Position numbers and translations under genes: made by a program. A stretch of 64,000 nt of DNA, from positions 1,824,001 through 1,888,000 of the forward strand of contig CAWIIP010000002.1 of assembly GCA_963836235.1 (NCBI GenBank). Direction: 5' to 3'. The DNA comes from an uncultured Pseudomonadota bacterium. Its GTDB lineage: Bacteria > Oederibacteriota > Muellerivitia > Muellerivitales > Muellerivitaceae. Positions 822 to 14,672 of this stretch are shown piece after piece. The first letter of the stretch is position 1, and each line of letters opens with the position of its first letter. Under the pieces are notes generated by a model. The model was given only the letters and a program-made list of their open reading frames with translations. It did no database searches and was not told the origin of the DNA.

Positions 822-1523
822 ATGATGACCCTACGAAAGTCTAACGAACGCGGCTTGAGCGACCTGGGTTGGCTGAAGTCCCGGCATTCCTTTTCCTTTG
901 GCGAATACTTTGACGACGCCCAAATGGGGTTCGGCGATCTGCGAGTGATCAATGAGGACCGCATTCAGGGAGGGACCGGCTTTTCGACCCACGGGCACCG
1001 GGATATGGAAATCATCTCCTACGTCCTCAGCGGGGCGCTGGACCATAAGGATTCCATGGGCACGGCGGCGACGATATTGCCGGGAGAAGTTCAACGCATG
1101 AGCGCGGGCACGGGGGTGAGGCATTCGGAGCATAACCACCTGAGGGACCAGGAAACTCATTTCTTCCAAATCTGGATTTTGCCGGAAGAGGACAACCTGA
1201 AACCGGGCTACGCCCAAAAGGATTTCTCGAAGGAACTGGGGCAAGGAAAGCTATTCCTGGCGGCTTCCAAAGACGGCCGGGAAGGGTCCATCACCTTGAA
1301 CCAGGACGCCAACCTCTACCTGGGCCAATTGAAGGCGGGGGAGAAGGTGGAGTTGCCGATGCACTGGGACCGCAAGGGATGGCTGCAATTGGCCACCGGG
1401 GAATTGACGGTGAACGGCCAAAAGCTATCCGAGGGCGACGGACTGGCGATCAGCGAGGAAGGCCATGTCAGTGTCCAGGTACTAAAGGACTCGCACTTTC
1501 TTTACTTCAACCTGCCCGGTTGA
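822..1523 (+). CDS. Pirin family protein (YhhW type)
   Basis: LRVINED, HGHRDMEI, HKDSMG, MSAGTGVRHSE, QIWI motifs. Confidence 0.93.
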   Translation: MMTLRKSNERGLSDLGWLKSRHSFSFGEYFDDAQMGFGDLRVINEDRIQGGTGFSTHGHRDMEIISYVLSGALDHKDSMGTAATILPGEVQRMSAGTGVRHSEHNHLRDQETHFFQIWILPEEDNLKPGYAQKDFSKELGQGKLFLAASKDGREGSITLNQDANLYLGQLKAGEKVELPMHWDRKGWLQLATGELTVNGQKLSEGDGLAISEEGHVSVQVLKDSHFLYFNLPG

Positions 1524-1529
1524 AAGACT

Positions 1530-1952
1530 TTATTTCCAAGTCCGTCCCCGGGTTGAACTGTCGACCGACCACTTGCCCCCGCCCTTGGTGGCGATAAAGA
1601 GGAACAAGAAGCAGTAAAGCACCGCCAGCTCGCCGTGGTTGACGATGGGGAAAAAGTTGTTATCGGTCGCGAACTTCCAATGGAATTGGAAATAGGCCAC
1701 CGCCATTTGGCCGCTGGCCAGGAAGGCGGCCAGGTGGGTGAGAAAGCCCGCCAAAATCATCAGCCCGCAAACCAGCTCAATCATGCCGCCGAACCAAAGT
1801 TCGGACCCGACCGGAGGCCTCATGTTGGGGTCGGTCAATAGCCCTAAAATCTTCTGCGCCCCGTGGAACGAGAATAAAAACCCGGCCATGATCCTCAATA
1901 AGCTATAGGCTTCTTCCGAATACTTCGAAAATGAATTTCCGATTTTCATCAT
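1530..1952 (-). CDS. DoxX family membrane protein
   Basis: LLRIMAGFLFSFHGAQK, GELAVLYCF, GGGKWSVD. Confidence 0.9.
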   Translation of the reverse strand: MMKIGNSFSKYSEEAYSLLRIMAGFLFSFHGAQKILGLLTDPNMRPPVGSELWFGGMIELVCGLMILAGFLTHLAAFLASGQMAVAYFQFHWKFATDNNFFPIVNHGELAVLYCFLFLFIATKGGGKWSVDSSTRGRTWK

Positions 1953-2016
1953 TTGTCCCGCCTCCTTAAGTTTTGATAAGTGCCTTCATTTTGATTCACG
2001 ATCCGCAGCCCGGGAT

Positions 2017-2256
2017 TTAATACCGGTCGTTCACATGGGCCACCCGGATATTGTTGATGACCTGGTGAACCCCGCCGATGCCCTGAACCAGGGTGGTGAT
2101 CGCCCGCTTGTCCTCGTAATCGTTGTTGGTGCCCGACAGGTGAACCACGCCGTCCTTCACTTGGACGTGCATGTGCTCGCCCATTTGCCGGATTCGGCTG
2201 GTGATCAGGGATTCCAGCTCGACATCGTTTGAGTTCGAATGTGTTTCGTGTGCCAT
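2017..2256 (-). CDS. Single BON domain protein
   Basis: VQVKDGVVHLSG..GIGGVHQVINNIRV. Confidence 0.85.
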   Translation of the reverse strand: MAHETHSNSNDVELESLITSRIRQMGEHMHVQVKDGVVHLSGTNNDYEDKRAITTLVQGIGGVHQVINNIRVAHVNDRY

Positions 2257-2316
2257 TTTAAACCTTTCAAATCTTATTTGTGCCGCGACTCAAACAACTA
2301 TCCAATCCATCCGGCG

Positions 2317-3015
2317 TCAAAGTGCGAAAAAGCTGATACCCGCCTGCAAAGGGATAAAAACCGAAGGATTCGGCAAGGGAATGCCCAAGCCTTTGGGGGA
2401 CGTGAAATCGATGTCGACCCTCGACTGCAGGAAAACCGCCATGTCGCCGGAAAAGCGGTAAAGAACTCCCGCGCCCGGCGCCAAATAGAAGTCCATTTCG
2501 GCTTCGTCGATCTTAGCCGTGGGGTCTCCGGGGGCGTTGTTCTGGACGTAGGTGTTCAGGGCGACGCCGGCCCCTCCGAAGACATAGGGGCGAAAGAGGC
2601 CGTCGCCGAAGGTCACCCGGAGAATGGCGACCAGGGGAATATAGGCCAAGAGGGCGTTCGTCGCGCCGGAGGAGGGGGCGATGTTGTATTGGTAATAACC
2701 GGTGCCGATGAAGACGCAAAAAGTCCTGTCGAGGCGATAGCCGATGTTGATGTCGCCCCCCAGACCCAGGGCAGGATTCACCATACTGCTGAAGGAAGGA
2801 ATGGAGAAACTGCCGTCGACTTGTTCCACCCATTTTTGGTCCTGAGTCAAGGCGGGTTGATCGGGATTAGGGCTTGAGACGCTTTGGCTTTGAGGGGAGG
2901 ACGGGGCATTTTGATCTTGAATCGAATAGGTCGGCGTTTGAGTGGGGTTGTTCTGGGCTTGAACGGTTGAAGCGGCCAGAACCGATAGGAAAATCATGGA
3001 TGTTAAAAATTTCAT
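2317..3015 (-). CDS. Outer-membrane beta-barrel protein (8-strand-like)
   Basis: Signal peptide, FRPYVFGGAG strand, alternating aromatic strands, C-terminal GISFF. Confidence 0.7.
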   Translation of the reverse strand: MKFLTSMIFLSVLAASTVQAQNNPTQTPTYSIQDQNAPSSPQSQSVSSPNPDQPALTQDQKWVEQVDGSFSIPSFSSMVNPALGLGGDINIGYRLDRTFCVFIGTGYYQYNIAPSSGATNALLAYIPLVAILRVTFGDGLFRPYVFGGAGVALNTYVQNNAPGDPTAKIDEAEMDFYLAPGAGVLYRFSGDMAVFLQSRVDIDFTSPKGLGIPLPNPSVFIPLQAGISFFAL

Positions 3016-3142
3016 TCTTTACTCCTCTGGGTAAAGCCAGGAAATGGAAGACCGCGATGCCGGAAGAAAGGGGCCGGGTGGCGGAAAAGTATTTCGCCCC
3101 ACCCGATTTGGGCCCCTGCCGCTTCGGCCATCTGTATCACCC

Positions 3143-3352
3143 TTAATTATGACCGCCGACACCGATCCTCATGTCCACTCCACTGCGGGGCTGGTCATGA
3201 TGGTCGTAATAATGACGGTGATGATGGTGGTGATGGTAATAATGCCTTTCGGGCACCACGATAACGGCGCCACCACGAACTTCATCGGCCGCGGTGATTC
3301 CGGTGACCGCTAAAAACAGCAGTCCCAGCGAAACCTTCAATAAACTTTTCAT
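3143..3352 (-). CDS. Small secreted His-rich protein
   Basis: Signal peptide, HYYHHHHHHRH tract, AAGGAG RBS, upstream sigma54 promoter. Confidence 0.7.
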   Translation of the reverse strand: MKSLLKVSLGLLFLAVTGITAADEVRGGAVIVVPERHYYHHHHHHRHYYDHHDQPRSGVDMRIGVGGHN

Positions 3353-3387
3353 ACATTCTCCTTATTCGTAAGTCTGGTTGAGTTAAG

Positions 3388-3403
3388 AGCAAGAAGCGAG
3401 CCG
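3388..3403 (-). promoter_or_regulatory. Sigma54 -24/-12 promoter
   Basis: Minus strand reads cGGctcgcttcttGCt (GG-N10-GC with TTGC). Confidence 0.7.
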
Positions 3404-3465
3404 CCCCCTTGGGCGGCATTCGACCGCCTTTTGAACCTTCCGGGAACTTGACGCCCCCGAAAGGA

Positions 3466-3498
3466 ATCAAAATGAGGGCTCGGTGCGATCATTTTGAT
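3466..3498. promoter_or_regulatory. Palindromic putative enhancer (UAS), copy 1
   Basis: ATCAAAATGA-N13-TCATTTTGAT; identical arms and spacing at 9122-9154. Confidence 0.7.
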
Positions 3499-3604
3499 CG
3501 GGATCGGCGCGGCCTTTGCTTGGGGAGAAAATTCCTCGACGCCTCCGGCGGGCTTTTCCTTTTATCGAGAGGGGTTTGGGCGATTCCGGGCGCTTGAAAG
3601 GGCG

Positions 3605-3620
3605 GGGCACGTTCCTTGCT
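3605..3620 (+). promoter_or_regulatory. Sigma54 -24/-12 promoter
   Basis: gGGCACgttccTTGCT upstream of the DUF3494 gene. Confidence 0.8.
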
Positions 3621-3684
3621 CTAACCCCTGTTCTGGATTTCAGGATTGGTTTTGGGATTCAAATAAATATTTCAGGAAGTCAAA

Positions 3685-4446
3685 GTGAAAAAGATTCTAG
3701 TTGGTTTAATTTTGATGGCATCGCTTCCGATCATTTTCATGGCTGGATGCGGCAGTTCAAACCCTTCAGGCCCGACGAGTTCGGCAACCGCGACTCCGGC
3801 GCCCTATACGACGCCCCAAAAGACGCCTATGGCGATGGTCGTCCTTAATTCGGCCGCGAATTACGTGATCTTGTCCGCGACCGGGATCACCAACAGCGGA
3901 CCCAGCACCACTTGCGGCGGTTACGGGGTCTATCCGGATGGACTGACTTCGGTGACCGGGTCACCGGCTATCGTGGAGAGCTGCGGCGGGGATATCGATG
4001 TCGCCGACGGTGCGGCCAATACCGCTGAAGGGGATTTGGGCACCGCCTATACGGACGCCATGGGACGGACCGGTGGGGCCATCCTGCCGCCCGGAGCCGA
4101 TATCGGAGGCCAAACTCTTTATCCCGGACTTTACACTGAAACGGGCAACCTAAATATCGCCTCGGCCGATCTTCACCTGAGCGGCAATGGCGTCTTTATT
4201 TTCAAGGTCAGCGGCAACCTGGTCGTGGGACCGGGCCGACAGGTCATCCTGGCCAATAGCGCGAGCGCCGCCAATGTTTTTTGGGCGGTGGCCGGTTACG
4301 GAGCCTTGAATACCACGGTTGCTTTCAAAGGAAACATCATGGCCCATACAGCCGTGACCCTCAATACGGGGGCCACGCTGACGGGTAGGGCTTTGGCTGA
4401 GACCGCGAATGTGACTTTGCTGACCAATACCATCACCCATCCCTAA
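3685..4446 (+). CDS. Ice-binding-like (DUF3494) lipoprotein
   Basis: Lipobox MAGC, Pro/Thr linker, GGQTLYPGLY, VFIFKV, ANVFWAVAG, FKGNIMA, LTGRALA. Confidence 0.9.
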   Translation: MKKILVGLILMASLPIIFMAGCGSSNPSGPTSSATATPAPYTTPQKTPMAMVVLNSAANYVILSATGITNSGPSTTCGGYGVYPDGLTSVTGSPAIVESCGGDIDVADGAANTAEGDLGTAYTDAMGRTGGAILPPGADIGGQTLYPGLYTETGNLNIASADLHLSGNGVFIFKVSGNLVVGPGRQVILANSASAANVFWAVAGYGALNTTVAFKGNIMAHTAVTLNTGATLTGRALAETANVTLLTNTITHP

Positions 4447-4541
4447 GGGATGGTTTTTAAAGTAAATATTGCCAAGCGGCCTAGCTGGGAGTTCTCCCCG
4501 CCAGGCTGCCTAAATTTGTTGGGATTTGAAAGGAAAAAGAA

Positions 4542-4988
4542 ATGAAAAAGGGCACAAAAGCAGGGGTTTTTTTAAGCTTCGGGGCGTTTTTAACCTTGGG
4601 AATGATGGCCTTCCTATTCTCCGGTTGCGGGGAGAAGAAGGTCGAGAATACCGAGGTGCCGAAGGCGCCGGAAACCAACGAGGCGGCGAAGGTCGAAACG
4701 GCCGCACCGGCTCCGGTGGAGAAGTACGTGGTCAAGGAAGGGGACACCTTGTGGGCGATCTCCAACCAATCGGGAAATTACTCCGATTCTTTCGAGTGGC
4801 CGCTGATCTTCAAGACGAACCGGGATGAAATCGTCGATCCGGATCAGATCACTCCCGGACAGGTTCTCGTCATCCAAAGGGGACAAACGGCGGAGCAAAC
4901 CGAGCATACCCGCCAGCTAGCCAGCGACACGCCGGCTTTCGTGTCCCACGAAGAGCCGAGGACGACCCTTCCGGTTAATTACTTCTAG
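4542..4988 (+). CDS. LysM domain lipoprotein
   Basis: Lipobox FSGC; YVVKEGDTLWAIS..WPLIFKTNRDEIVDPDQITPGQVL. Confidence 0.9.
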   Translation: MKKGTKAGVFLSFGAFLTLGMMAFLFSGCGEKKVENTEVPKAPETNEAAKVETAAPAPVEKYVVKEGDTLWAISNQSGNYSDSFEWPLIFKTNRDEIVDPDQITPGQVLVIQRGQTAEQTEHTRQLASDTPAFVSHEEPRTTLPVNYF

Positions 4989-5073
4989 AGCTTCACGCCC
5001 ATCAGCGAAAAGCTTCATAACCACGGATGAAACCATCCGTGGTTGATTTTTTTACCCCGAATTGAGGAGTCCC

Positions 5074-6300
5074 ATGAACGCATTACCGAAGACCGAATTG
5101 GAAAATACGGAGAAGGACACGAAGCGGGTCATTCGATTTGAACTGGCGCCCTCGACCATGATCACGCTGGTTCTGGTCCTCGCCGGCTTATGGCTGTTGT
5201 TCAAGCTTTTGCCCGTCATTCTCGTGCTGGTCGCGGCTTTTTTTATCGTGGGAACCCTGAACCCGGCCGTTCATTGGCTGGAAAGCAAACGGGTCAGCCG
5301 GATGCTGGCGATCGGGATTGTTTTCGGGTCGCTCCTGGTCGTCACCCTGACGATGGCGATATTGACGGTTCCGGCGCTTTTGGCACAGGCCTCGTCGATC
5401 CTGGAACAGGAACCGGCTTTGCGAGCCCAATTGGCGGACCGGCTTTCCGGCTTTCCCCTCAGCGAGGCCTTGGGGAAATGGCTGCGTAATTTCAAGTATG
5501 GCGGTCCTATCAGCACGGCGGGCGCCACGGCCTTCGCCTATTCCATGGACGCCCTGGCTTTCGTCACTTACAGCCTCAGCGCCATCTTCCTGGCCCTCTA
5601 TATCATGCTCGACCGCGACCGGCTGCGGGGCGGGCTTTTCGCCGCCGTTCCCCGGTCGCACCACATCCGGCTTTCCCGGGTGATGATGAACCTGGAAACC
5701 ATCGTGGGCGCTTATATCCGGGGCCAGCTGATCACGAGCGCGGCTATCGGCGTTTTCATCCTGATCCTCCTGGTGGCCTGCGGGGTCGAGAACGCCGTGG
5801 CGCTGGCGGTCTTCGGTGCCGTCGCCGACATCCTGCCCTATATCGGCATCTTCCTCCCGATCGCCGCGGCGATCCTATCGGCGGTTCCCCGGGGCCCGGT
5901 GGTCACGATCGTCGTCCTCGCCCTCATGTTCATTTACATGGAATTCGAGAGCCGGGTGCTGGTGCCGAAGGTTTACGGCCAGGCCCTGCGCCTGCCCTCC
6001 ACGGTAATCCTTTTTTCGCTTTTGGCCGGGGGGACTTTGGCGGGAATCACGGGCGCCCTGCTGGCGCTTCCTTTCGCGGCGGCCGCCATGATGCTGATTG
6101 AGGAACTGAGGGTGCAATTGCCCGGTGAACAGGCGCAAGTGGCGGATGAGGCGTTGAAAGAGAAGGATGACCGGGGCGAAGAGGAATATGAACGCCGGAC
6201 CGAGGGGGTTTCGGCCGAGAAATCCGCCGCCATCGCGGTGGAGATATCCGGGGACCGGGTGAAGGAAGAAAGTGAGTCTTTGAAAATGGTGGAGCCGTGA
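5074..6300 (+). CDS. AI-2E family transporter
   Basis: Multiple TM segments; YIRGQL, LPYIG, ESRVLVPKVYG, GITGALLALP. Confidence 0.9.
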   Translation: MNALPKTELENTEKDTKRVIRFELAPSTMITLVLVLAGLWLLFKLLPVILVLVAAFFIVGTLNPAVHWLESKRVSRMLAIGIVFGSLLVVTLTMAILTVPALLAQASSILEQEPALRAQLADRLSGFPLSEALGKWLRNFKYGGPISTAGATAFAYSMDALAFVTYSLSAIFLALYIMLDRDRLRGGLFAAVPRSHHIRLSRVMMNLETIVGAYIRGQLITSAAIGVFILILLVACGVENAVALAVFGAVADILPYIGIFLPIAAAILSAVPRGPVVTIVVLALMFIYMEFESRVLVPKVYGQALRLPSTVILFSLLAGGTLAGITGALLALPFAAAAMMLIEELRVQLPGEQAQVADEALKEKDDRGEEEYERRTEGVSAEKSAAIAVEISGDRVKEESESLKMVEP

Positions 6301-6355
6301 AGGCGTTGGAATGGCGGCCGGGAATGTTTAAAAAAATCATCGGGAAAGAGGAGAG

Positions 6356-7153
6356 ATGATCATGCTTGAGAAAAAACAACAGAAAGCGCTTCAGGACAAA
6401 CTGGTCAGCATGGCCAAAAAGGTTTATCGTGGCCCTTGGGAATTGGGGAAGTTTTCCAAGAACGAAAGAGCCAACGTCATCATCAATAACATCGAGAAGA
6501 TGCCCCATATTTTCGTCATGGCCTGCCTCTTGGGCCGCCAGTTCCACGATGAGAAGGCCTGGGAAACGATGGCTTACCTGGAAGAAAGGACCGGCACGCT
6601 CGACATCCAGAAATTGAGCCGCCTCACCTTGGGCGACTGGGAAGAGGCTTTCACGAAACCCACCCCCTTACACGGCTTTCCACACGAAATGGCCCGCACG
6701 GTTATGGCGGCCGTCCAACGTATCGTCAAGGAATATGGCGGCAATGCGTCGCGTTTATGGAGTGACAAGCCCTCCAGCGCCACGATGATCAAACGGTTCC
6801 TGGAATTTGAGGGAATCGGCCCCAAGGTTTCGACCATGGCCGCTAATATTCTGGCGCGCTATTTTAAAATCAAGATGAGCGATTATTATTCCATTGAAGT
6901 GACGGTGGATGGGCGCATGAAGCGGGTTCTTTCCCGAATGGGCATCGTCGACTCCAAAAAACCAAGATATATCCAATTGACCGTCCGGGAAATGTATCCG
7001 AAGTACCCGGGGATTTTTGACCCGATTTTTTGGGAAATTGGAAAGTTCCATTGTTTTCAGGTTCATCCGGATTGCGCCGGGTGCCCGGCTAATGGATTGT
7101 GCCAGTACAGCCTGGTTCAGGGAAAAAAGGAACGACCGGTGTTGATCCGTTGA
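6356..7153 (+). CDS. HhH-GPD endonuclease III-like protein with 4Fe-4S motif
   Basis: HhH FEGIGPKV, VD motif, C-X6-C-X2-C-X5-C at the C-terminus. Confidence 0.8.
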   Translation: MIMLEKKQQKALQDKLVSMAKKVYRGPWELGKFSKNERANVIINNIEKMPHIFVMACLLGRQFHDEKAWETMAYLEERTGTLDIQKLSRLTLGDWEEAFTKPTPLHGFPHEMARTVMAAVQRIVKEYGGNASRLWSDKPSSATMIKRFLEFEGIGPKVSTMAANILARYFKIKMSDYYSIEVTVDGRMKRVLSRMGIVDSKKPRYIQLTVREMYPKYPGIFDPIFWEIGKFHCFQVHPDCAGCPANGLCQYSLVQGKKERPVLIR

Positions 7154-8265
7154 AGCGCCGACGGTTTTATTTCACATCGAGTCGAAAGACGAGGGGGGTC
7201 GGCTTTTTCCTGGCCCTTGTCTCACTTTGGGTCGGGGGATGCAGCACCCTTCCCGCTCATTACGTGCCGATCTTGCCGGCCCCGGTGACGAGTTTCCCTC
7301 CGGTCAAACCCGGTCTGGTTCGCTTGCCGGTGGATATCGTCTTTCCCAGCGGCGGCGACTTCCTCCAGCATCTTTCCAACCTTTTCAAGGGCGGGCTCCA
7401 GCAACTGGTGCCGGATATCAGCCGGGCGCCGGGGCTAGACGTGAAATCCCACGTGGCCAGCCTCTGGGCGACCATCGAGGCACCGATCTTTTTGGATAAG
7501 GACCTTTGGCTTGTCATCCACCCCCGGACTTTGGCCATCGGGATGATGAGGACCGACCTGAAGCGGATCGCGACCCTCCATAGCGTTTTGGAAATGACCG
7601 CCAACCCCGAAATTATTTTCGGGCCCAAGCCCCTGGCTGGCCCCACGGCCATGCCCCCACTCGGCCGCTTTCGGCCGGGTCCTGGCACCTTCCGGGCGAT
7701 GAGCAATGTCCGCATCAGTTATAAAGAAGCCAATGACTATTTCCGGGACCCCCGGTTGAAGATTATCGGCATGGTTTTGCCCGGGACGGGGGGCCAGAAG
7801 GTGACGCTCGATGGGATCCGGTTGTACGGATCGGGCGGGAAGGTGATCGTCGAAGTGAAGCTTCATTACAACCCGCTGATCGTCAATTTAGGGACCAAAC
7901 CGGCCAAACTGACGATCTACCTCCGGGGGACTCCCCGATTTCTTCCGCAAAAACGCATGTTCGACATGCCGGACCTTGATTACGACATCAAGTCCAGCGA
8001 CCTGATGGTCCAAGTGGCCGACTGGCTCTTCAAGTCGGATTTCAGAAACCAATTGCGCAAAATTGCCGTGCTTCCCATCGGCCCCAAAGTGGATCTGATC
8101 AAGGCAAAAGTAAACAAGGCCCTCAACCGGCCCCTGGACCGATTCGCCAGCCTCCAGACCCAGGTGAATTATTTAAGGATATTGGACGGGTTCGCGGACA
8201 ATGAGGGAATCGAAGTGCGCGTGGCCATCCGGGGGACGGCCACCCTCGAAGTGACCTGGAATTAA
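7150..8265 (+). CDS. DUF4403-like lipoprotein
   Basis: Lipobox VGGC; IYLRGTP..DLDYDIKS..QVADWL pattern; start codon uncertain. Confidence 0.55.
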   Translation: MKRRRFYFTSSRKTRGVGFFLALVSLWVGGCSTLPAHYVPILPAPVTSFPPVKPGLVRLPVDIVFPSGGDFLQHLSNLFKGGLQQLVPDISRAPGLDVKSHVASLWATIEAPIFLDKDLWLVIHPRTLAIGMMRTDLKRIATLHSVLEMTANPEIIFGPKPLAGPTAMPPLGRFRPGPGTFRAMSNVRISYKEANDYFRDPRLKIIGMVLPGTGGQKVTLDGIRLYGSGGKVIVEVKLHYNPLIVNLGTKPAKLTIYLRGTPRFLPQKRMFDMPDLDYDIKSSDLMVQVADWLFKSDFRNQLRKIAVLPIGPKVDLIKAKVNKALNRPLDRFASLQTQVNYLRILDGFADNEGIEVRVAIRGTATLEVTWN

Positions 8266-8316
8266 GAAGGTCCGTTGGGTTCGGGACTTCTCCGGGGAAA
8301 CTTCAGCGCCCAAGCC

Positions 8317-8649
8317 TCAGGGTTTAATGGAAAGAGAACGGGTTCTTTTCTTAAGGACCGGCTTTTTGCCTCTCAGAGAGGACCAAAGGCTTCCCGCGAG
8401 GATTCCGCCGACGGCGGCCCAGGCGACAGATTTTTTCGGGTTTTCCTCGATGAACTGTTCGGCCTTTTTTTTCTGTTTTTTCAAGTTTCCCAACATATCC
8501 CGCATCGTGATTTTTGACAGGCCCAACTCGGCCAGAAACCCCTTGAAATTTTTACCCACGGCTTTTTTTTGCTTCAACGATAAAATTTTATTTTTGCCTT
8601 CGTTTAAATAATCGAAGAGTTTCTTTTTGACCGGTTCACGCGTGGACAT
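8317..8649 (-). CDS. Small basic C-terminally anchored protein (YqjD/ElaB-like)
   Basis: QFIEENPKKSVAWAAVGGILAG resembles the DUF883 C-terminus. Confidence 0.55.
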   Translation of the reverse strand: MSTREPVKKKLFDYLNEGKNKILSLKQKKAVGKNFKGFLAELGLSKITMRDMLGNLKKQKKKAEQFIEENPKKSVAWAAVGGILAGSLWSSLRGKKPVLKKRTRSLSIKP

Positions 8650-8666
8650 CTTTTGTTCCCCTATCT

Positions 8667-8981
8667 TTATTTTGTGGATGGAATCAACAACCTCAAAACC
8701 AACAATCCCAGAAGACCGCCGCCGATAAAAACGACCCCGCGCGGGATGCCGCAATCATCCATCGCTACGAAAAATAAGCCGAGCGTGACGCAGGTCAGGC
8801 TCATGGAAATCGAAAAGACCACGACGGCCAGCTTCACCACCCACCTTTGAAATTCCCCTTTGTGTTTTTCCAAGGACCTTTCGGCTCGATCCTCGATGGA
8901 ACCGATGTTTTTTAAGGCTAAAAAGGCCATTTCCCGGAGGCGGCTGAAAAGTGGAATGACCGCCGTTGTTTTTCGTGACAT
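8667..8981 (-). CDS. Small two-TM membrane protein (YqjE/holin-X-like)
   Basis: Two TM helices, next to the YqjD-like gene, downstream of a sigma54 promoter. Confidence 0.5.
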   Translation of the reverse strand: MSRKTTAVIPLFSRLREMAFLALKNIGSIEDRAERSLEKHKGEFQRWVVKLAVVVFSISMSLTCVTLGLFFVAMDDCGIPRGVVFIGGGLLGLLVLRLLIPSTK

Positions 8982-9043
8982 TTTTGCTTTCTGACGGGCT
9001 CGTCCCCATCTTCAAGGGTCCGACCGATGACGACTTCTAACAA

Positions 9044-9059
9044 AGCAAGAAGCAGGCCG
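9044..9059 (-). promoter_or_regulatory. Sigma54 -24/-12 promoter
   Basis: Minus strand reads cGGcctgcttcttGCt. Confidence 0.7.
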
Positions 9060-9121
9060 CGCGTTGAACCGCTCTTAACGGCCTTCTTTGGAACCCTTCG
9101 CGGTTCATCATTCGGAAAGGA

Positions 9122-9154
9122 ATCAAAATGAGAGTCCGGAATAATCATTTTGAT
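9122..9154. promoter_or_regulatory. Palindromic putative enhancer (UAS), copy 2
   Basis: ATCAAAATGA-N13-TCATTTTGAT. Confidence 0.7.
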
Positions 9155-9258
9155 CGGCTATCGGTGATAGGGCCGCTGAAAATATTTTTCCACGGCAAAG
9201 AATAGTCTTTTTTCGAGGCAGTCATGGGATTTACGGCTGCCTTCGACCCATCGCCACA

Positions 9259-9274
9259 CGGCATTGAACTTGCT
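9259..9274 (+). promoter_or_regulatory. Sigma54 -24/-12 promoter
   Basis: cGGCAttgaacTTGCT. Confidence 0.75.
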
Positions 9275-9308
9275 CTATTCATGTTAGGAAAATTCAAGGA
9301 GGAAGCTC

Positions 9309-9719
9309 ATGAACGGTTCAACTTATTTAGCCCTGTCCATTTTGCTGATGGGGTCCGCCGGTCTGGCTTCGGCCCAAATCATGGTCGCGACGCCATCGGC
9401 GCCGGCATCAATGACAACATCGGCGATACCGATTACGGGAGCCGCCGCCGATGGACCCGCCTCAAAGACCGAAATAAACGCGCGGATCACGGACCAAGAA
9501 ACCCGGATTGACGCGGATTCGAAAGTGGGCAAGCTGACCCTGGAGCAGGCGAAGCCCCTCAAGTGCTCCTTGAAAAAGATCAAGAAGCAGAAGAAGGCCG
9601 ATTACGCTGAAAATGGTAAAAATGAATTGGGCGGCGACCAAAAAACCGATTTAAACAACCAGTTGGACGCGAACGAGAAAAACCTCACCACCACCAATGG
9701 AGTTAAAAATACGAATTGA
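9309..9719 (+). CDS. Secreted helical hypothetical protein
   Basis: AAGGAGG RBS, signal peptide, QETRI..GKLT..E repeat-like helices. Confidence 0.75.
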   Translation: MNGSTYLALSILLMGSAGLASAQIMVATPSAPASMTTSAIPITGAAADGPASKTEINARITDQETRIDADSKVGKLTLEQAKPLKCSLKKIKKQKKADYAENGKNELGGDQKTDLNNQLDANEKNLTTTNGVKNTN

Positions 9720-9782
9720 CCCGGCTGGAATGTCCGGTCCTCACTTGAGGGAATAGGGGTGATGTTTTCGCGGATTGGCGGA

Positions 9783-9798
9783 CGGTACGGAAGTTGCT
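9783..9798 (+). promoter_or_regulatory. Sigma54 -24/-12 promoter
   Basis: cGGtacggaagTTGCT upstream of the GlsB-family gene. Confidence 0.65.
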
Positions 9799-9848
9799 TT
9801 AAGTTGGATGATGTCAGTTGGAAAAATAAAATTTAGGGAGCGGGAAAA

Positions 9849-10124
9849 ATGTATTACTCGATGCAGTTCCACAACTTGGTTTGGTTTTTAATCGTAGGAG
9901 GTTTTGCCGGCTGGCTGGCCAGCGTCGTGGTCACGGGCGGCGGCATGGGAATCTTCGCGGATATCGCCGTGGGTGTGGCGGGGGCCATGGTCGGCGGGGT
10001 TTTGGCTGATTCTCTCAATTGGAATATCTATGGATTTTGGGGCGTACTGGGTGTTTCGATTTTGGGCTCCATGATTTTGATCGTCATATTTCGGGGCCTT
10101 TTTGGTAAGAGGCAGCGGGCTTAA
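9849..10124 (+). CDS. GlsB/YeaQ/YmgE stress membrane protein
   Basis: FLIVGGFAGWLAS..GIFADIAVGVAGAMVGG. Confidence 0.9.
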   Translation: MYYSMQFHNLVWFLIVGGFAGWLASVVVTGGGMGIFADIAVGVAGAMVGGVLADSLNWNIYGFWGVLGVSILGSMILIVIFRGLFGKRQRA

Positions 10125-10227
10125 CCGGATTCGAAAGAGTCCTTCGTCACATCCAGCGAAACAACCAACCCGGTGATGGGCCTCAGGGAAGGTCCATCCC
10201 CTTCCATCAAGAAAAGGAAAAGCAAAA

Positions 10228-10347
10228 ATGGCGAAAAAAACCAGGGGCGCAAGAATGGTAGCCGCGAAAAAAAGAGCCGCGAAAAGGCATGGCGGCAAGG
10301 GGCCGGTGAAAGACAGGCCCGCCGGCAAACACATCATGAAAACCTAA
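10228..10347 (+). CDS. 39-aa Lys/Arg-rich small protein (not in the ORF track)
   Basis: AAGGA RBS; MAKKTRGARMVAAKKRAAKRHGGKGPVKDRPAGKHIMKT. Confidence 0.55.
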   Translation: MAKKTRGARMVAAKKRAAKRHGGKGPVKDRPAGKHIMKT

Positions 10348-10453
10348 AACCACCCGTTAAAAGGGCCGTCCGCATGGGCGAGGTTCATGTCGGGGCGATC
10401 ACCTAGGCGTCACCACGGTCGTTAGAAAATCACAGATTAAACCAGGAGAGATT

Positions 10454-11221
10454 ATGAAACCGATGTTTTTAAGCGTTCTCAAGTACACGGGAGCCTGTTT
10501 GCTCCTCTTCGCCTTTTCTTTCATGGTCGGAACGAAAGTTCTTTCCGCCGAACCCACCCTCCTTCACCTGGATTTCCAGGATGAGCAGGGCCAGCCGGTC
10601 AGTGTGACCCGGGCGACCTTGGTTTTGGTGGCCGGCAGTTACATTGATAAATTGCCGTTGGAAGTCGCGAATCATGGGCTGGATCTTCCGCTGGACGCTT
10701 CCTGGCTGAAAGCGAATTGGCCCGGGGGCACAAGCCGCTTTAAGAATATGGACCGGGCCTATGTGTTCCTGAAAGCCCCGGGATATGCCTCGATCTGCTC
10801 GGACCCGATCCATTGGATCGGAACCGAAACGGACGGTTTGGGGAAGGATGTCGTCATCTCCTTTCCGCGCGGCAAAACATTAGCGGTCTCGAGAGGACAG
10901 GCGGTTTCTTTCCCGGTGAACTTTCGAAAGTCCAATGACCGGTTTTTGAAGCTGTCGGATGGAAAAGGAAATCCTTTAGCGGGAATCCAGGTTAAGTCCT
11001 ACATTTATTGGTCCAAAAGCGACGACGGCGACTTGAACGGGTCGGATTTCCTGAGCGAGGGGACGAGCGACGCGACCGGGCGAGTTCCCGTGATGGACGG
11101 GGATTTTATTTACGCCTTTCAAGTAACTCCCAAGACCGCTGACGGCACTAAAGCCGCTACCGTGCTCATCGTGAGGCGGTTTGATAGCAAGGAATATCCT
11201 GTCACCGTGCCGCTGAATTAG
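10454..11221 (+). CDS. Secreted hypothetical protein (carboxypeptidase regulatory-like beta domains)
   Basis: Signal peptide; two D-x-x-G-x-P-[VL] motifs; AGGAG RBS. Confidence 0.65.
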   Translation: MKPMFLSVLKYTGACLLLFAFSFMVGTKVLSAEPTLLHLDFQDEQGQPVSVTRATLVLVAGSYIDKLPLEVANHGLDLPLDASWLKANWPGGTSRFKNMDRAYVFLKAPGYASICSDPIHWIGTETDGLGKDVVISFPRGKTLAVSRGQAVSFPVNFRKSNDRFLKLSDGKGNPLAGIQVKSYIYWSKSDDGDLNGSDFLSEGTSDATGRVPVMDGDFIYAFQVTPKTADGTKAATVLIVRRFDSKEYPVTVPLN

Positions 11222-11310
11222 GGACGGATTCGGATCCGGAATCAGCCGGATCGAAGGATTTCCAAACCAGTTTTTTTAACCAGTTCATACAAGCAAGAAA
11301 AGAGGAAGTT

Positions 11311-11823
11311 ATGTTTTCGGATTTGAGAAAAGTTTGGTCGGTCGGTTTGATGATGGCGGGAGTTCTTTTGTTGCCGCTCTGTTCCCGGGCGGACTCGGGT
11401 TATAACCCGACGAATTCGGGGGGCAATTTCGGCTTGGGCTTGGAGGTGGGTGATCCGGGCAACTGGGGCATCACGGGCAAAATCTGGATCGACCGGGTGA
11501 ACGCCTTTCAGCCGGCGGTGAAATTCGACTCCGCGGGTGACGCCCTCCTGCAGTTGGATTATTTGTGGCACAACTTCGACATCATCCACATGAAGGATAC
11601 CGACGGCGAAATGCCGGTTTATATTGGACTGGGCGGAGATCTCCTGCTTCAAGACACGGTGCAAATCGCGGGCCGGGTTCCGATCGGTATTTCCTACATT
11701 TTCGACAAGCGGAACGTGCCGGTGGATATTTACCTGCAGGCGGTACCAACCCTTTGGTTTTTTAGCGGCGGCCTGACGACGTTCGATGTCTATGGTGAAT
11801 TGGGCGCGCATTACTACTTCTGA
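11311..11823 (+). CDS. Small outer-membrane beta-barrel protein
   Basis: Signal peptide, FGLGLEVGDP, RVPIGISY, C-terminal HYYF. Confidence 0.75.
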   Translation: MFSDLRKVWSVGLMMAGVLLLPLCSRADSGYNPTNSGGNFGLGLEVGDPGNWGITGKIWIDRVNAFQPAVKFDSAGDALLQLDYLWHNFDIIHMKDTDGEMPVYIGLGGDLLLQDTVQIAGRVPIGISYIFDKRNVPVDIYLQAVPTLWFFSGGLTTFDVYGELGAHYYF

Positions 11824-11848
11824 TCAGTGAAAAGAAAGGATATTCGAA

Positions 11849-11995
11849 ATGTTATTTACGATCGCGGCCGTGCTGGTGGTTCTTTGGCTTTTAGGTTTCG
11901 TGAGTTCCTACACCCTGGGGGGATATATCCACATACTCCTGGTCATAGCCCTCATTGTTTTAGTTGTCGGCTTTTTACAGGGCCGGAAGGCTTAA
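11849..11995 (+). CDS. lmo0937-family small membrane protein, 48 aa (not in the ORF track)
   Basis: MLFTIAAVLVVLWLLGFVSSYTLGGYIHILLVIALIVLVVGFLQGRKA; AAGGA RBS. Confidence 0.9.
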   Translation: MLFTIAAVLVVLWLLGFVSSYTLGGYIHILLVIALIVLVVGFLQGRKA

Positions 11996-12057
11996 CTTCT
12001 GAGAAACCCCACGGCTTGAGGCTTAAGCCACGAGGTTCTTGAAGGGATGAGGTTTTT

Positions 12058-12083
12058 AAAAAGTCCGCGCGAGCGGACTTTTT
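12058..12083 (+). terminator. Intrinsic terminator
   Basis: AAAAAGTCCGC-GCGA-GCGGACTTTTT hairpin. Confidence 0.7.
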
Positions 12084-12106
12084 ATCTTTCCGTTAAAGGT
12101 CGCGTC

Positions 12107-12460
12107 ATGAGAATTTTTTTCATCTTTGGGCTGATCCTGACCCTCACGGGCTGCGCCACTTTCGGCATCAATGATCCCCAACTGAAATTAAAGGTCGAGC
12201 CGGACCCGGCGGTCCGGGGGAAGAGGGCCTTGTTCGTCCTGAATGCGCCGATGGACGCGGAGAAGGTCACGGGAGTGCTGGAAATTTTCACCAGCCCGTT
12301 GTTTAAATTCAAAAAAGATCTCAAAAAGAAATATTGGTTCATTTCAAACAAGATTCCCGAGACGGCTTTGGTGCCGCCCGGGATTTATTGGGTGAGGCTG
12401 TCCTATTCTTTGGGGAATCAGACACCCCATTTCATGAGGATGCAACTGCGGCTGAAGTAA
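12107..12460 (+). CDS. Hypothetical lipoprotein
   Basis: Lipobox LTGC after a hydrophobic segment. Confidence 0.65.
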   Translation: MRIFFIFGLILTLTGCATFGINDPQLKLKVEPDPAVRGKRALFVLNAPMDAEKVTGVLEIFTSPLFKFKKDLKKKYWFISNKIPETALVPPGIYWVRLSYSLGNQTPHFMRMQLRLK

Positions 12461-12501
12461 CAGTCTTGTTTTTTCCCCGGCACTAAAAAAGAAAGAAGGC
12501 G

Positions 12502-12921
12502 ATGATGTCCATTTCAAAAGAAACGGTATTAGAGTCGATAAAACAGGACCATGTGATGGTTTTGAACGTGCTTCCGGAAGCGGAATTCCAAAAGCTTCAT
12601 ATCGAGGGCTCCCGTAACCTGCCTTTAACCACGGACCATGGGGCTTTCGCGGAGGCGGTTGAAAAGCAGTACGGCAAGAAGCGGTTTTTTATCATTTATG
12701 GCTCCAACATCGGCAGCCGGACGGCCATCGACGCGTCCGACGCGCTGTTGAAGAGGGGCTTCAAAGCCGAAGTCTACCTCAGCGGGATGAGGGGATGGAC
12801 CGAGGCCGGCTTTCCGACGGGCCGGAACCGACGCCCCGAAAAAGGCGGCTTCTCTGTGAGTGGGCTGGTGAACGGGCGCGATTCGGAATCTCCCGGTGTC
12901 CGGAAGTACACGTCGGAATAA
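12502..12921 (+). CDS. Rhodanese-like protein
   Basis: LHIEGSRNLP, YLSGMRGWTEAGFP; no Cys in the IIYG loop. Confidence 0.85.
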   Translation: MMSISKETVLESIKQDHVMVLNVLPEAEFQKLHIEGSRNLPLTTDHGAFAEAVEKQYGKKRFFIIYGSNIGSRTAIDASDALLKRGFKAEVYLSGMRGWTEAGFPTGRNRRPEKGGFSVSGLVNGRDSESPGVRKYTSE

Positions 12922-13059
12922 CGAGCCCGGCGCTTTTTTACGGGGAACCCCCGCGCCTTCTTTTGACTTTTTCACCTTCCGGTTAAAATATCCCGAGGAC
13001 TAGGTATGCCGAGGGAAACTGTTTAGCATGGGTTGAAATAAGACTTCGGGGAGATTTGA

Positions 13060-14442
13060 ATGCCGATCTTTTTTTCCTGGTCCCTGGGCCATGTTTTTGC
13101 GATCTTCAATTTTCTTTTGGCCGTCCTTTTCGTTTCCTTCATCTTGCGCTCCAAGAGGCCGCCGGGAAGCACCCTGGCCTGGCTTTTTTTCGTGCTGGCG
13201 GCGCCCTATATCGGAATTCCCTTCTTTATTTTCCTTGCCGACCGGAAGACCAAGAGCCGCTTCCACCAAAAGAAATCTCTCTACGAGCCCAATCCACCTC
13301 AAGAAGGCCAATGGGAGGGGGCGGTGGAAAAGTTGCTGGCCGGGCTGGGAGTGACGCCTTCCCGCGGCGGCCAAAAGGCCGAACTGGTTTCCACCGGGGA
13401 GGAGGCCTACGCCCGGATCGCCGGGATGATTTCCACCGCCCGCAAGCGCATCCATTTGACCACCTTCATTTTCGCCAAGGACCCGGTGGCCGAAAGTCTC
13501 ATCGAACTGCTGGAAAAAAAGGCCGAAGAGGGCGTGGCGGTGCGGGTGCTGCTGGATTCCATGGGATCGCTCATGGCCAAGCGGCCCTCCTTCAAGGGTT
13601 TGGTGGAAAAAGGCGGACAGGTCGTTTTTTTCAATCCCGTGTTCCACCTGCCTTTCCGGGGGAGGGCCAACCTGCGCAACCATCGCAAGCTCCTGATCGC
13701 CGATTCCGAAAGGGCCATCCTGGGGGGGATGAACATCGCTAAGGAATATATGGGCCCCAACCCCGATCCCAATCGCTGGACCGACCTTTGCCTGGAGGTG
13801 GAGGGTTCCTGCGTTCGGGATATGGAAGCGGTCTTCGCCGAGGACTGGAAATTCGCCACGCAGGAGGAGCCGGGCGGGGAACCGCCCGCCCCGGTGGAAG
13901 ACAGGGGGGACTGCCGACTTCAAGTGATCGCCGAGGGGCCGGACGTGAGATTCGACCCCCTTTACGACACCCTCATCTCGTTGATTTACCAGGCCTCGCG
14001 CAGAATCTGGATCGCTACGCCTTACTTCATCCCCGACGAATCCCTCACCCGGGCGCTGGAGCTGGCGGGCCGCCGGGGAATCGAAGTGCGGGTATTGGTT
14101 CCCCGGAACTCCAACCATCTTCTCGCCGACCTGGCTCGGGGGACCTATCTGCGCCAGCTTTTGAAATCCGGGTGCCAGGTCGATCTGGCGGAGAAAATGC
14201 TGCACGCCAAGGCCTTCCTGGTGGACGGGAATTACGCCATTCTTGGATCGGCCAATTTCGATATGAGGAGCCTGCTGCTGAATTACGAGATCGGCGTCTT
14301 GACCCGCGCCGGCGGGCCGCTGGCGGCTTTGGAAAAATGGTTCCAGGCGCAATTCGAGGCGGCGGGAAAGTCCGATTTAAAGGTGAATTATTTCCGGGAT
14401 ATGGCCGAGAGCGTGGGGCGAGTTTTGGGCCCGCTGATTTAG
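13060..14442 (+). CDS. cls: Cardiolipin synthase (PLD family)
   Basis: Two N-terminal TMs; HKD motifs RNHRKLLIAD and LHAKAFLVD. Confidence 0.92.
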   Translation: MPIFFSWSLGHVFAIFNFLLAVLFVSFILRSKRPPGSTLAWLFFVLAAPYIGIPFFIFLADRKTKSRFHQKKSLYEPNPPQEGQWEGAVEKLLAGLGVTPSRGGQKAELVSTGEEAYARIAGMISTARKRIHLTTFIFAKDPVAESLIELLEKKAEEGVAVRVLLDSMGSLMAKRPSFKGLVEKGGQVVFFNPVFHLPFRGRANLRNHRKLLIADSERAILGGMNIAKEYMGPNPDPNRWTDLCLEVEGSCVRDMEAVFAEDWKFATQEEPGGEPPAPVEDRGDCRLQVIAEGPDVRFDPLYDTLISLIYQASRRIWIATPYFIPDESLTRALELAGRRGIEVRVLVPRNSNHLLADLARGTYLRQLLKSGCQVDLAEKMLHAKAFLVDGNYAILGSANFDMRSLLLNYEIGVLTRAGGPLAALEKWFQAQFEAAGKSDLKVNYFRDMAESVGRVLGPLI

Positions 14443-14461
14443 AACTTCCCACAAAAACCGA

Positions 14462-14579
14462 TTGAACCACCAAGACACCAAGGGCACCAAGAAAGTCAAA
14501 AACAAAGGCTGGATTTATAAGGTTTTCCAATGTTTTTTATTTTGCTGTTCTTAGTGTTCTTGGTGTCTTGGTGGTTCAA
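14462..14579. repeat. Palindromic dispersed repeat, family A copy 1
   Basis: AACCACCAAGACACCAAGGGCACCAAG..AT-rich core..CTTGGTGTCTTGGTGGTT. Confidence 0.85.
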
Positions 14580-14672
14580 AGGGGTTTTGTTTTTAATTTT
14601 TGCGTCGGTTGGTAGAATGGGGAAGTTTGAGGGGGCCTTGGCAGCCCTGAAATTTGAACAAGGGGAAGAGAT

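Follow-up and report, generated by a model that had tools for sequence, protein, structure and literature searches.

Sigma-54 systems usually comprise one activator, one or a few operons and a narrow task. The XylR/DmpR subfamily of sigma-54 activators binds upstream dyad sites 80-150 bp from the promoter, and this V4R-type family is known almost only for aromatic-pollutant sensors, which are used as biosensor parts. Among broad stress regulons, those of SigB (Bacillus), RpoS (Escherichia coli) and EcfG (Alphaproteobacteria) contain CsbD, BON/OsmY-type, DUF883/ElaB-type, GlsB/YmgE-type, superoxide dismutase (SOD), ferritin/Dps-like, PRC-barrel and STAS proteins. Herein, we analyzed a 64,000-nucleotide stretch (the window, C2:1824001-1888000) from the genome of an uncultured soil bacterium (3.97 Mb in five contigs, 99.4% complete), in which the same palindrome stands between outward-facing sigma-54 promoters in two intergenic regions. 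Comparison with the rest of the genome and with related genomes suggests that the palindrome is probably the enhancer of a sigma-54 stress-protection regulon switched by an XylR/DmpR-type activator.

Parts of such an arrangement have been described in other bacteria. As outlined in PMC4987338, ZraR of E. coli and Salmonella is one activator that serves the divergent sigma-54 promoters of zraP and zraSR in envelope stress. PexR of Myxococcus xanthus is presented as a one-component, GAF-domain sigma-54 activator of ahpC and katB with a metal-binding sensor, which binds dyad repeats before genes for oxidative stress and has phylum-wide conservation (PMC12754779). A broad link of sigma-54 to the cell exterior was proposed earlier (PMC3162934). 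In literature titles and abstract openings, no description of a V4R/sigma-54 stress regulon of the present kind was found.

The coordinates that a first-pass annotation of the window had given for the two palindromes (3466-3498 and 9122-9154) and for five sigma-54 promoters were all borne out by the sequence, as were its offsets of 63 and 63 bp on the short side and of 107 and 105 bp on the long side (Table 1). When up to three mismatches were allowed, the palindrome pattern matched the window only at these two places, versus 0.04 matches expected, and none of 100 shuffles reached two. The sigma-54 consensus alone was not enriched in the window (21 matches with up to two mismatches versus 24.8 expected), and the significance therefore lies in the position of the promoters relative to the palindrome, not in the motif count. 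The five GG-N10-GC sites scored 8-10 of 11, with the next open reading frame (ORF) starting 34-64 nt beyond the 16-mer. A sigma-70 promoter scan of 1400-10400 yielded two sites, none of which fell in either intergenic region.

The whole genome was scanned with a weight matrix derived solely from the relatives' sites, at a cut-off of at least 16 bits. Nine matches were obtained, six of which stood apart at 28.1-40.1 bits, and the others scored 23.2, 18.1 and 16.9. The module had been described as duplicated; it is not a local duplication of two regions, and the two window modules are two of six copies in this genome. Each of the six enhancers has one or more outward GG-N10-GC promoters, about eleven in this genome, and all six are intergenic with gene starts 25-140 nt away. 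Genome-wide, about 61 candidate sigma-54 promoters with a score of 9 or more are located outside long ORFs and point toward the start of an ORF, and roughly ten of them are in the regulon. The perfect 11-of-11 sites are all outside the regulon, on contigs C1 and C4, presumably for other activators.

To describe the module across copies, each set of identical contexts was represented by one copy, and copies lying within 260 bp of the end of a locus were excluded. This left 48 non-redundant palindromes, that is, 96 arms, which came from the window itself, L015 and L016 (two other stretches of this genome), 27 loci of relatives titled candidate division FCPU426 or Firestonebacteria, and 15 stretches of the related genome G018. 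The general layout is a TCAAAATGA-N12/13-TCATTTTGA palindrome flanked by two outward promoters: on one side (the short arm), one of the GGCTYGTTTCTTGCT type at about 52-66 bp, and on the other (the long arm), one of the GGCACGTTCCTTGCT or GGTATGGAACTTGCT type at about 93-111 bp. An outward site scoring at least 8 and lying 20-240 bp from the center was present in 61 of the 96 arms versus 7.4 by chance, where the background density of GG-N10-GC sites scoring at least 8 of 11 was 3.6e-4 per strand per bp genome-wide. The center-to-GG distances clustered at about 59, 70, 78.5 and 121.5 bp, successive classes differing by roughly one, one and four turns of the helix (period 10.5 bp; Rayleigh test, p ~7e-5, a significance overstated for related copies). 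The window's long-arm promoter 2 aligns with CGGTATGGAACTTGCC at L015 8001-8016, and (A/G)GGCACGTTCCTTGCT, nearly the same as long-arm promoter 1, recurs at gaps of 93-109 bp in L035, L037, L048 and L054.

An alignment of 18 modules showed conserved blocks only: the short-arm promoter GGCTYGTTTCTTGCTTT, a short-arm T-tract, the extended palindrome and, in the long arm, a GAAAAT(T)T block about 30 nt in, a T-tract about 60 nt in and the promoter GGCACGTTCCTTGCTTTAAC or GGTATGGAACTTGCTTTAAC. No other conserved dyad was found in it between the palindrome and the promoters. The asymmetry of the palindrome matches arm identity in these 18 modules: in the short-arm half, rrAATCAAAATGAGrG, TGA is followed by G in 14 of 18, and in the long-arm half, within CCGATCAAAATGATCG, it is followed by T in all 18. 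The half-site centers are 21-22 bp apart, and both therefore lie on one face of the helix. The long-arm GAAAAT(T)T block and T-tract may be an intrinsic bend or the site of a bending protein; no IHF consensus was recognized in the long arm by eye, only conserved A- and T-tracts, and the genome has five HU/IHF-family genes. Palindrome, both promoter types and spacing are kept in orthologous and paralogous intergenic regions across genera, so that the conservation on which the earlier proposal hinged is present.

The genome contains rpoN, without which that proposal could not stand, as a single copy in which the three sigma-54 domains are all present. Strong AAA+ activator genes numbered nine. 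Only two activators have the architecture XylR_N, V4R, AAA+ and HTH_8, and the others are of the receiver (five), GAF (one), TPR (one) and PAS (one) types. In both V4R paralogs the order is XylR_N, V4R, Sigma54_activat and HTH_8, and every domain is above its Pfam cut-off. The paralogs are 77% identical (414/535 residues), have the loops GSFTGA and GAFTGA, and share an identical stretch, VATLYRKLK, inside the HTH_8 match, which is the putative recognition helix. As had been noted in the first-pass annotation, no bacterial enhancer-binding protein is encoded in the window; the nearest activators are the C2 paralog (C2:1806230-1807870) and one at C2:1783564. It described the activator as unknown, but a V4R-type family co-occurs with the palindrome and adjoins it, and the protein is thus not wholly unknown.

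Several lines of evidence connect the V4R-type activators with the palindrome. Downstream of the C2 paralog come the pirin enhancer (C2:1808903) at 1 kb, the next one at 4 kb and the two in the window at 20-25 kb; in all, five of the six enhancers are no more than 25 kb downstream of this gene. Records that contain 77-89% identical copies of one of the genome's activators are titled candidate division FCPU426 or Candidatus Firestonebacteria, and some have discordant automatic labels. When flanks of up to 10 kb on each side were searched around activator orthologs, at least one palindrome was present in 18 of 27 loci, mostly 1-3 kb downstream; the nine loci without one were mostly short contigs, and one of them, L045, was long. 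In the outgroup activator loci (39-58% identity), no palindrome was found (0/6). One of these, L062, with a 58% identical activator, was also inspected for a comparable dyad, and none was seen in 7000-15000; this locus was uninformative.

Co-occurrence was then counted in 41 related genomes, with N12 and N13 spacers and up to two mismatches. The 14 genomes with the sensor domain had 129 palindrome matches, with at least one in every genome, whereas the 27 genomes without it had 12, and the 11 of these that are listed all had two mismatches. The reversed-pattern control gave six matches in the 41 genomes. Other activators were present in all 41 genomes (1-13 each), and the palindrome therefore tracks the V4R-type class specifically. 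With 2-4 paralogs per genome, the family is an expanded one, and palindrome matches stood against paralogs as 25 with four, 15 with three, 14 with three and one with one. G018 had up to 25 pattern matches, over at least nine contigs among the sites listed. On these comparisons, the activator that binds the palindrome is most likely an enhancer-binding protein of the XylR/DmpR type. Autoregulation of the activator was considered and rejected: no sigma-54 site (GG-N10-GC, score of at least 6) was found upstream of the C2 gene, and the C1 paralog has only one same-strand site of score 6, read as chance.

Residues 1-230, which form the sensor, can be aligned with the solved structures of PoxR (5FRU, E 5.7e-20), CapR (6IY8) and MopR (5KBE), all phenol sensors, with E values of 6e-20 to 2e-17. 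Residue numbers and roles in MopR are those set out in PMC9556785, and alignment positions were counted against them. Cys139, Cys165 and Cys173 correspond to C155, C181 and C189, the zinc ligands in MopR, and are conserved. Of the two residues that anchor the phenol hydroxyl in MopR, W134 is conserved as Trp118, and H106 is substituted by Tyr95. The best full-length NCBIfam model, MobR, scored 323.2 bits against a cut-off of 999, indicating that the subfamily architecture is present but that the protein is no ortholog of a named member.

The genes behind the enhancers recur across genera. In the relatives, the first three positions of each arm were sampled, which gave 102 ORFs. Family matches were Pirin_C_2 (8), Rhodanese (4), Ice_binding (3), SOD (3), Crp-type regulator (3), Transgly_assoc (2), STAS (2) and DUF2934 (2), together with receiver proteins and single matches to CsbD, ferritin-like, LysM, HPr, glycogen-phosphorylase-like, PAS kinase, GGDEF, HD, YceI, VTT, OmpA, beta-barrel, SPFH and PRC-barrel proteins. 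The 30 cargo ORFs of G018 comprised four Ice_binding and two CsbD proteins, 14 without a family, and one each of Transgly_assoc, LysM, SOD, DUF2934, DUF4403, receiver, CheW, CheR, YHS and DUF748. Behind the same enhancer, DUF3494 genes number two in L054 and four in G018 and are also found in L038, the DUF3494-LysM pair of the window is seen again in the G018 locus L073, and clear Transgly_assoc genes are second in long-arm operons of L037, L054 and the G018 locus L070. No aromatic-catabolic oxygenase or pathway genes were found among the targets (16 ORFs in the window, 27 in L015/L016, and 102 and 30 in the relatives). The recurrence across genera of DUF3494, pirin, rhodanese, SOD, CsbD, GlsB, BON, LysM, DUF2934 and signaling genes supports a stress-protection regulon. 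The label "general stress" is a reading of gene content.

Table 1. Palindromes, promoters, activators and genes of the putative regulon. Positions are those of the window unless preceded by a contig (C1, C2) or by a further stretch of this genome (L015, L016); aa, amino acids.
Feature	Position	Strand	Details
Palindrome 1 (candidate upstream activating sequence, enhancer)	3467-3497 (C2:1827467)	.	TCAAAATGA-N13-TCATTTTGA; 0 mismatches; extended form GGAATCAAAATGAGGG...CGATCATTTTGATCGG; 40.0 bits by relatives-only matrix
Palindrome 2 (candidate upstream activating sequence, enhancer)	9123-9153 (C2:1833123)	.	TCAAAATGA-N13-TCATTTTGA; 0 mismatches; 40.1 bits by relatives-only matrix
Short-arm sigma-54 promoter 1	3388-3403	-	CGGCTCGCTTCTTGCT; 63 bp from palindrome 1; toward His-rich protein gene
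Long-arm sigma-54 promoter 1	3605-3620	+	GGGCACGTTCCTTGCT; 107 bp past palindrome 1; toward DUF3494 gene
Short-arm sigma-54 promoter 2	9044-9059	-	CGGCCTGCTTCTTGCT; 63 bp from palindrome 2
Long-arm sigma-54 promoter 2	9259-9274	+	CGGCATTGAACTTGCT; 105 bp past palindrome 2
Fifth promoter ("orphan")	9783-9798	+	CGGTACGGAAGTTGCT; long-arm sequence class CGGTACGGAAGTTGCTTTAA; no palindrome of its own
Second orphan promoter	L015 10275-10290 (C2:1814275)		CGGCACGTTCCTTGCTTTAAAC; same class; outside window
V4R activator paralog, C2	C2:1806230-1807870		16 kb before window start
V4R activator paralog, C1	L016 7501-9216		ends ~700 bp from C1 enhancer
Enhancer	C2:1808903		15 kb before window; 28.1 bits; promoter TGGTTCGTTTCTTGCT at 53 bp, to pirin/quercetinase-type cupin
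Enhancer, short side	C2:1811863		12 kb before window; 40.0 bits; promoter TGGCTTGCTTCTTGCC at 61 bp, to PAS hybrid histidine kinase and receiver protein
Same enhancer, long side	C2:1811863		promoter CGGTATGGAACTTGCC at 108 bp, to rhodanese, outer-membrane barrel, SOD-like protein
Enhancer	C2:1814693		9 kb before window; 37.8 bits; promoter GGGCCCGATTCTTGCT at 42 bp, to small ORFs, PLDc_N, YceI, others
Enhancer	C1:398789		another contig; 39.7 bits; promoter CGGCTTAGTTCTTGCC at 65 bp, to DUF2934 protein
Short-arm cargo 1: secreted His-rich protein, 69 aa	3143-3352	-	no family match
Short-arm cargo 2: 232-aa protein	2317-3015	-	only NCBIfam OMP_TP0733, E 4.6e-4, far under cut-off
Short-arm cargo 3: BON-domain protein, 79 aa	2017-2256	-	BON, E 7e-13
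Long-arm cargo 1: secreted DUF3494/Ice_binding-like protein, 253 aa	3685-4446	+	E 1.8e-45
Long-arm cargo 2: LysM lipoprotein, 148 aa	4542-4988	+	strong terminator after, 5018-5045
Short-arm cargo, module 2: membrane protein, 104 aa	8667-8981	-	weak matches under cut-off
Short-arm cargo, module 2: 111-aa protein	8317-8652	-	weak DUF883_C (YqjD/ElaB-type) C-terminus, E 0.002, 18.1 bits vs 27
Long-arm cargo, module 2: secreted Lys-rich protein, 136 aa	9309-9719	+	no Pfam or NCBIfam match
GlsB/transglycosylase-associated-type membrane protein, 91 aa	9849-10124	+	Transgly_assoc, 24.1 bits vs 25.3

In module 1, the 232-aa product is probably an outer-membrane beta-barrel, and strand and spacing suggest that the BON gene shares the short-arm transcript. 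Strong terminators at 4437-4453 and 5018-5045 suggest that the long-arm transcript ends past the LysM gene. In module 2, a 104-aa ORF is found at the equivalent position in the G018 locus L071. The first-pass annotation had named YqjD/E-like and GlsB genes among the targets; weak matches to both families exist, but both are under the cut-off (DUF883_C, 18.1 vs 27; Transgly_assoc, 24.1 vs 25.3). The 136-aa Lys-rich protein contains an LTLEQ string, which we liken to the LTXXQ motif of Spy/CpxP/ZraP-type periplasmic proteins. Small secreted His-rich proteins without a family recur as first genes (3143-3352 in the window and L015 10369-10569) and may bind metal.

The fifth promoter, which had been placed before the GlsB gene, is present and shares the TTTAA extension of the long-arm class. 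However, it lacks a dedicated palindrome (the nearest enhancer is 630 bp upstream), and no counterpart before the GlsB gene was seen by eye in the two relatives checked (L037 and L054). The second orphan promoter, in L015, likewise lacks an upstream palindrome; its nearest enhancer is 400 bp downstream, past the small gene that it faces. These two promoters might be served by an enhancer at a distance. The lone half-site reported at 1986-1995 found no support as a part of the system and was rejected: its 9-mer occurs 120 times in the genome (both orientations), and there is no GG-N10-GC site beside it in 1940-2030.

Some neighboring genes were also noted. At 192-482 and 510-803 there is a small gene pair of the HigB/HigA toxin-antitoxin type, judged by eye from the translations. 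A second pirin-like ORF (822-1523) and a DoxX protein (1530-1952) flank the short-arm operon; no sigma-54 motif was found in 1940-2030, 2250-2330 or 3010-3150, and the consensus match nearest to the pirin-like ORF is inside it, at 1491-1506. The pirin gene elsewhere in the genome (L015 3997-4695) is under an enhancer. A small ORF in the rhodanese/barrel/SOD operon (L015 9838-10099) has two CxxC pairs, zinc-ribbon-like by eye, and no NCBIfam match. On the long-arm side of the DUF2934 module there is a glycogen-phosphorylase-like gene, both here (L016 3765-6335) and in L042 (13412-15955). The orthologous module in L042 has a long-arm promoter, with LysM and HPr genes standing between it and the phosphorylase gene, whereas no long-arm promoter toward the phosphorylase gene was found at the C1 enhancer.

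The core of the first-pass annotation, namely one enhancer-binding protein, a shared palindrome, divergent sigma-54 promoters and stress-type genes, agrees with every comparative test that we ran. Motifs, spacing, conservation, co-occurrence with the activator family and gene content were seen directly; from them we infer activator binding, the activating signal and the transcription starts. The mechanism would be as follows. An XylR/DmpR-type protein would bind the two half-sites, two helical turns apart, and its N-terminal sensor, once triggered, would stop inhibiting the ATPase. The activator would then assemble on the enhancer, and the DNA would be looped toward the waiting polymerase, aided by the A/T tracts or by one of the five HU/IHF-family proteins, so that sigma-54 RNA polymerase could be remodeled at either flanking promoter. 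One enhancer would thereby serve two outward promoters, with the near GG about 70-80 bp and the far one about 120 bp from the palindrome center. Six enhancers and about eleven promoters would drive envelope, oxidative-stress and signaling genes in this genome.

Several points weigh against this interpretation. The evidence is comparative throughout, and the assignment to the V4R-type class draws on adjacency and phyletic pattern. A look for sequencing runs covering 1500-10200 listed no RNA run, and the only runs listed, three DNA runs from a single study, covered small shares (0.05-0.13). The related genomes are not independent, and their kinship therefore inflates the significance of both the co-occurrence and the periodicity. 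No promoter with a score of at least 8 was found in 35 of the 96 arms, and in G018, 3 of 16 palindromes, one of them a perfect match, had no promoter on either side. The two orphan promoters share the sequence class yet stand without a dedicated enhancer. Several cargo genes of the window are under family cut-offs or without a family, and the one catalase-peroxidase gene, in L060, is linked to the regulon through a weak promoter (score 7). The hybrid histidine kinase and receiver proteins inside the regulon leave room for further regulators. There are also 15 genes of the sigma-70 family in the genome, and sigma-54 therefore need not be the sole stress route.

It is possible, though rather less likely than not, that the regulon is real but narrow. 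It might then serve in defense against plant or peat phenolics and the resulting oxidative and envelope damage, or else be set off by freezing or desiccation. In favor of this, the sensor shows homology to PoxR, CapR and MopR, all of them phenol sensors, and keeps the zinc-site residues and the Trp, the most constant neighbor of the activator is a pirin/quercetinase-type cupin (eight relatives' loci and here), DUF3494 ice-binding-like proteins are the commonest long-arm cargo, and FCPU426 is reported from peat in PMC3660313. Against a narrow role, the His partner of the Trp in MopR is Tyr here, and the targets examined have no aromatic-catabolic genes. Moreover, CsbD, BON, GlsB, SOD and STAS proteins, all seen among the cargo, are typical of broad stress regulons in model bacteria. 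The narrow role is compatible with the mechanism proposed above and would be a refinement of it. A further idea, offered tentatively and on balance doubtful, is that in this soil and peat phylum a phenol-sensor (XylR/DmpR) branch was re-purposed as the master switch of stress protection over many operons, reading plant or peat polyphenols or redox state through its pocket and zinc-thiolate. It would fire both promoters together from the asymmetric, helically locked enhancer. The 2-4 paralogs would share the motif and sense different signals, so that the enhancer would integrate these signals and fill a role like that of SigB or RpoS.

A sigma-54 enhancer bound by another activator appears unlikely. 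In that case, the palindrome would be bound by an NtrC-type protein, one of the five with a receiver domain, with the PAS hybrid kinase as its possible input, and the V4R genes would be neighbors or cargo. Receiver-, GAF-, TPR- and PAS-type activators do exist here (five, one, one and one), and a PAS hybrid kinase and single receiver proteins stand directly under a short-arm promoter, both here and in L037. Yet other activators occur in all 41 genomes, while strong palindromes are confined to the 14 with the V4R-type sensor, and the palindrome adjoins a V4R-type gene in 18 of 27 loci.

Still less probable is that the palindrome is the site of a conventional dimeric regulator, a repressor or a Crp/Fnr-type protein, that merely modulates transcription while the sigma-54 activator acts from elsewhere or from solution. 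Crp-family regulators are short-arm cargo in three relatives' loci (L046, L047 and L055), and the two same-class promoters without a nearby enhancer, if active at all, would fit such a scheme. However, the palindrome stands at a fixed, helically phased 60-120 bp from the -24 element and does not overlap the promoters, which is the geometry of an enhancer and not of an operator. The 18-module alignment has no other conserved dyad in the palindrome-promoter interval, and the palindrome follows the V4R-type activator phyletically. That the 265-bp architecture is a non-regulatory dispersed repeat or mobile-element remnant is highly improbable: it does occur in many copies within genomes, one of which has up to 25 pattern matches, but only the palindrome, the two promoter boxes and the A/T tracts are conserved while the spacers are not, the six copies here are intergenic at 25-140 nt from gene starts, no terminal repeats or transposase appear in the ORF lists, and the same gene families stand behind the module across genera.

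If the palindrome is the enhancer of a V4R-type stress-protection regulon, this would be a first regulatory map for an uncultured candidate phylum, and it would widen the known range of tasks of V4R-type sensors. The module would also be a natural, compact, bidirectional sigma-54 control element with a defined, helically phased geometry. Dozens of small proteins of unknown function would be predicted to act in stress protection because they are under the same control element, including the His-rich, 104-aa and 136-aa proteins and the DUF2934 and DUF3494 paralogs.

Compared with known systems, the candidate activator is like XylR, DmpR, MopR and PoxR in its four parts, XylR_N, V4R, an AAA+ domain with a GAFTGA-type loop, and HTH_8. 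It differs from them in its targets, which are about eleven envelope, oxidative-stress and signaling promoters and not aromatic-catabolic operons, in the replacement of MopR His106 by Tyr95, in the MobR score (323 against 999) and in the 2-4 paralogs per genome. The half-site looks like a published XylR half-site consensus, a likeness from which we draw no conclusion: the string turned up in no paper searched, and no enhancer sequence was found in the DmpR-Po passages of PMC13682980. Divergent sigma-54 promoters around a shared activator site are found here as they are for ZraR. ZraR, however, is a receiver-domain regulator of a single locus and is coded in one of the divergent operons, whereas here there are a V4R-type sensor, many copies and fixed, asymmetric arms, and the candidate has no receiver domain and, for the C2 gene, no GG-N10-GC upstream (score of at least 6). 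PexR, in the account cited above, differs in its GAF sensor, as against XylR_N/V4R, in its tandem CACCG-n6-CGGTG repeats and small regulon, and in that it also represses a sigma-A promoter, of which there is no sign here. As in the SigB, RpoS and EcfG regulons, with which the gene families overlap, many unlinked protective genes stand under one signature; those regulators are sigma-70-family factors controlled by partner switching or proteolysis, whereas the promoters here belong to the -24/-12 type, which depends on an ATPase activator. Precedents thus exist both for divergent sigma-54 promoters that share an activator (ZraR) and for a one-component sigma-54 activator in oxidative stress (PexR). 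What is new is a V4R-type sensor at the putative head of a many-operon, stress-type regulon, and a stereotyped, asymmetric, helically phased and unusually reused module in an uncultured phylum.

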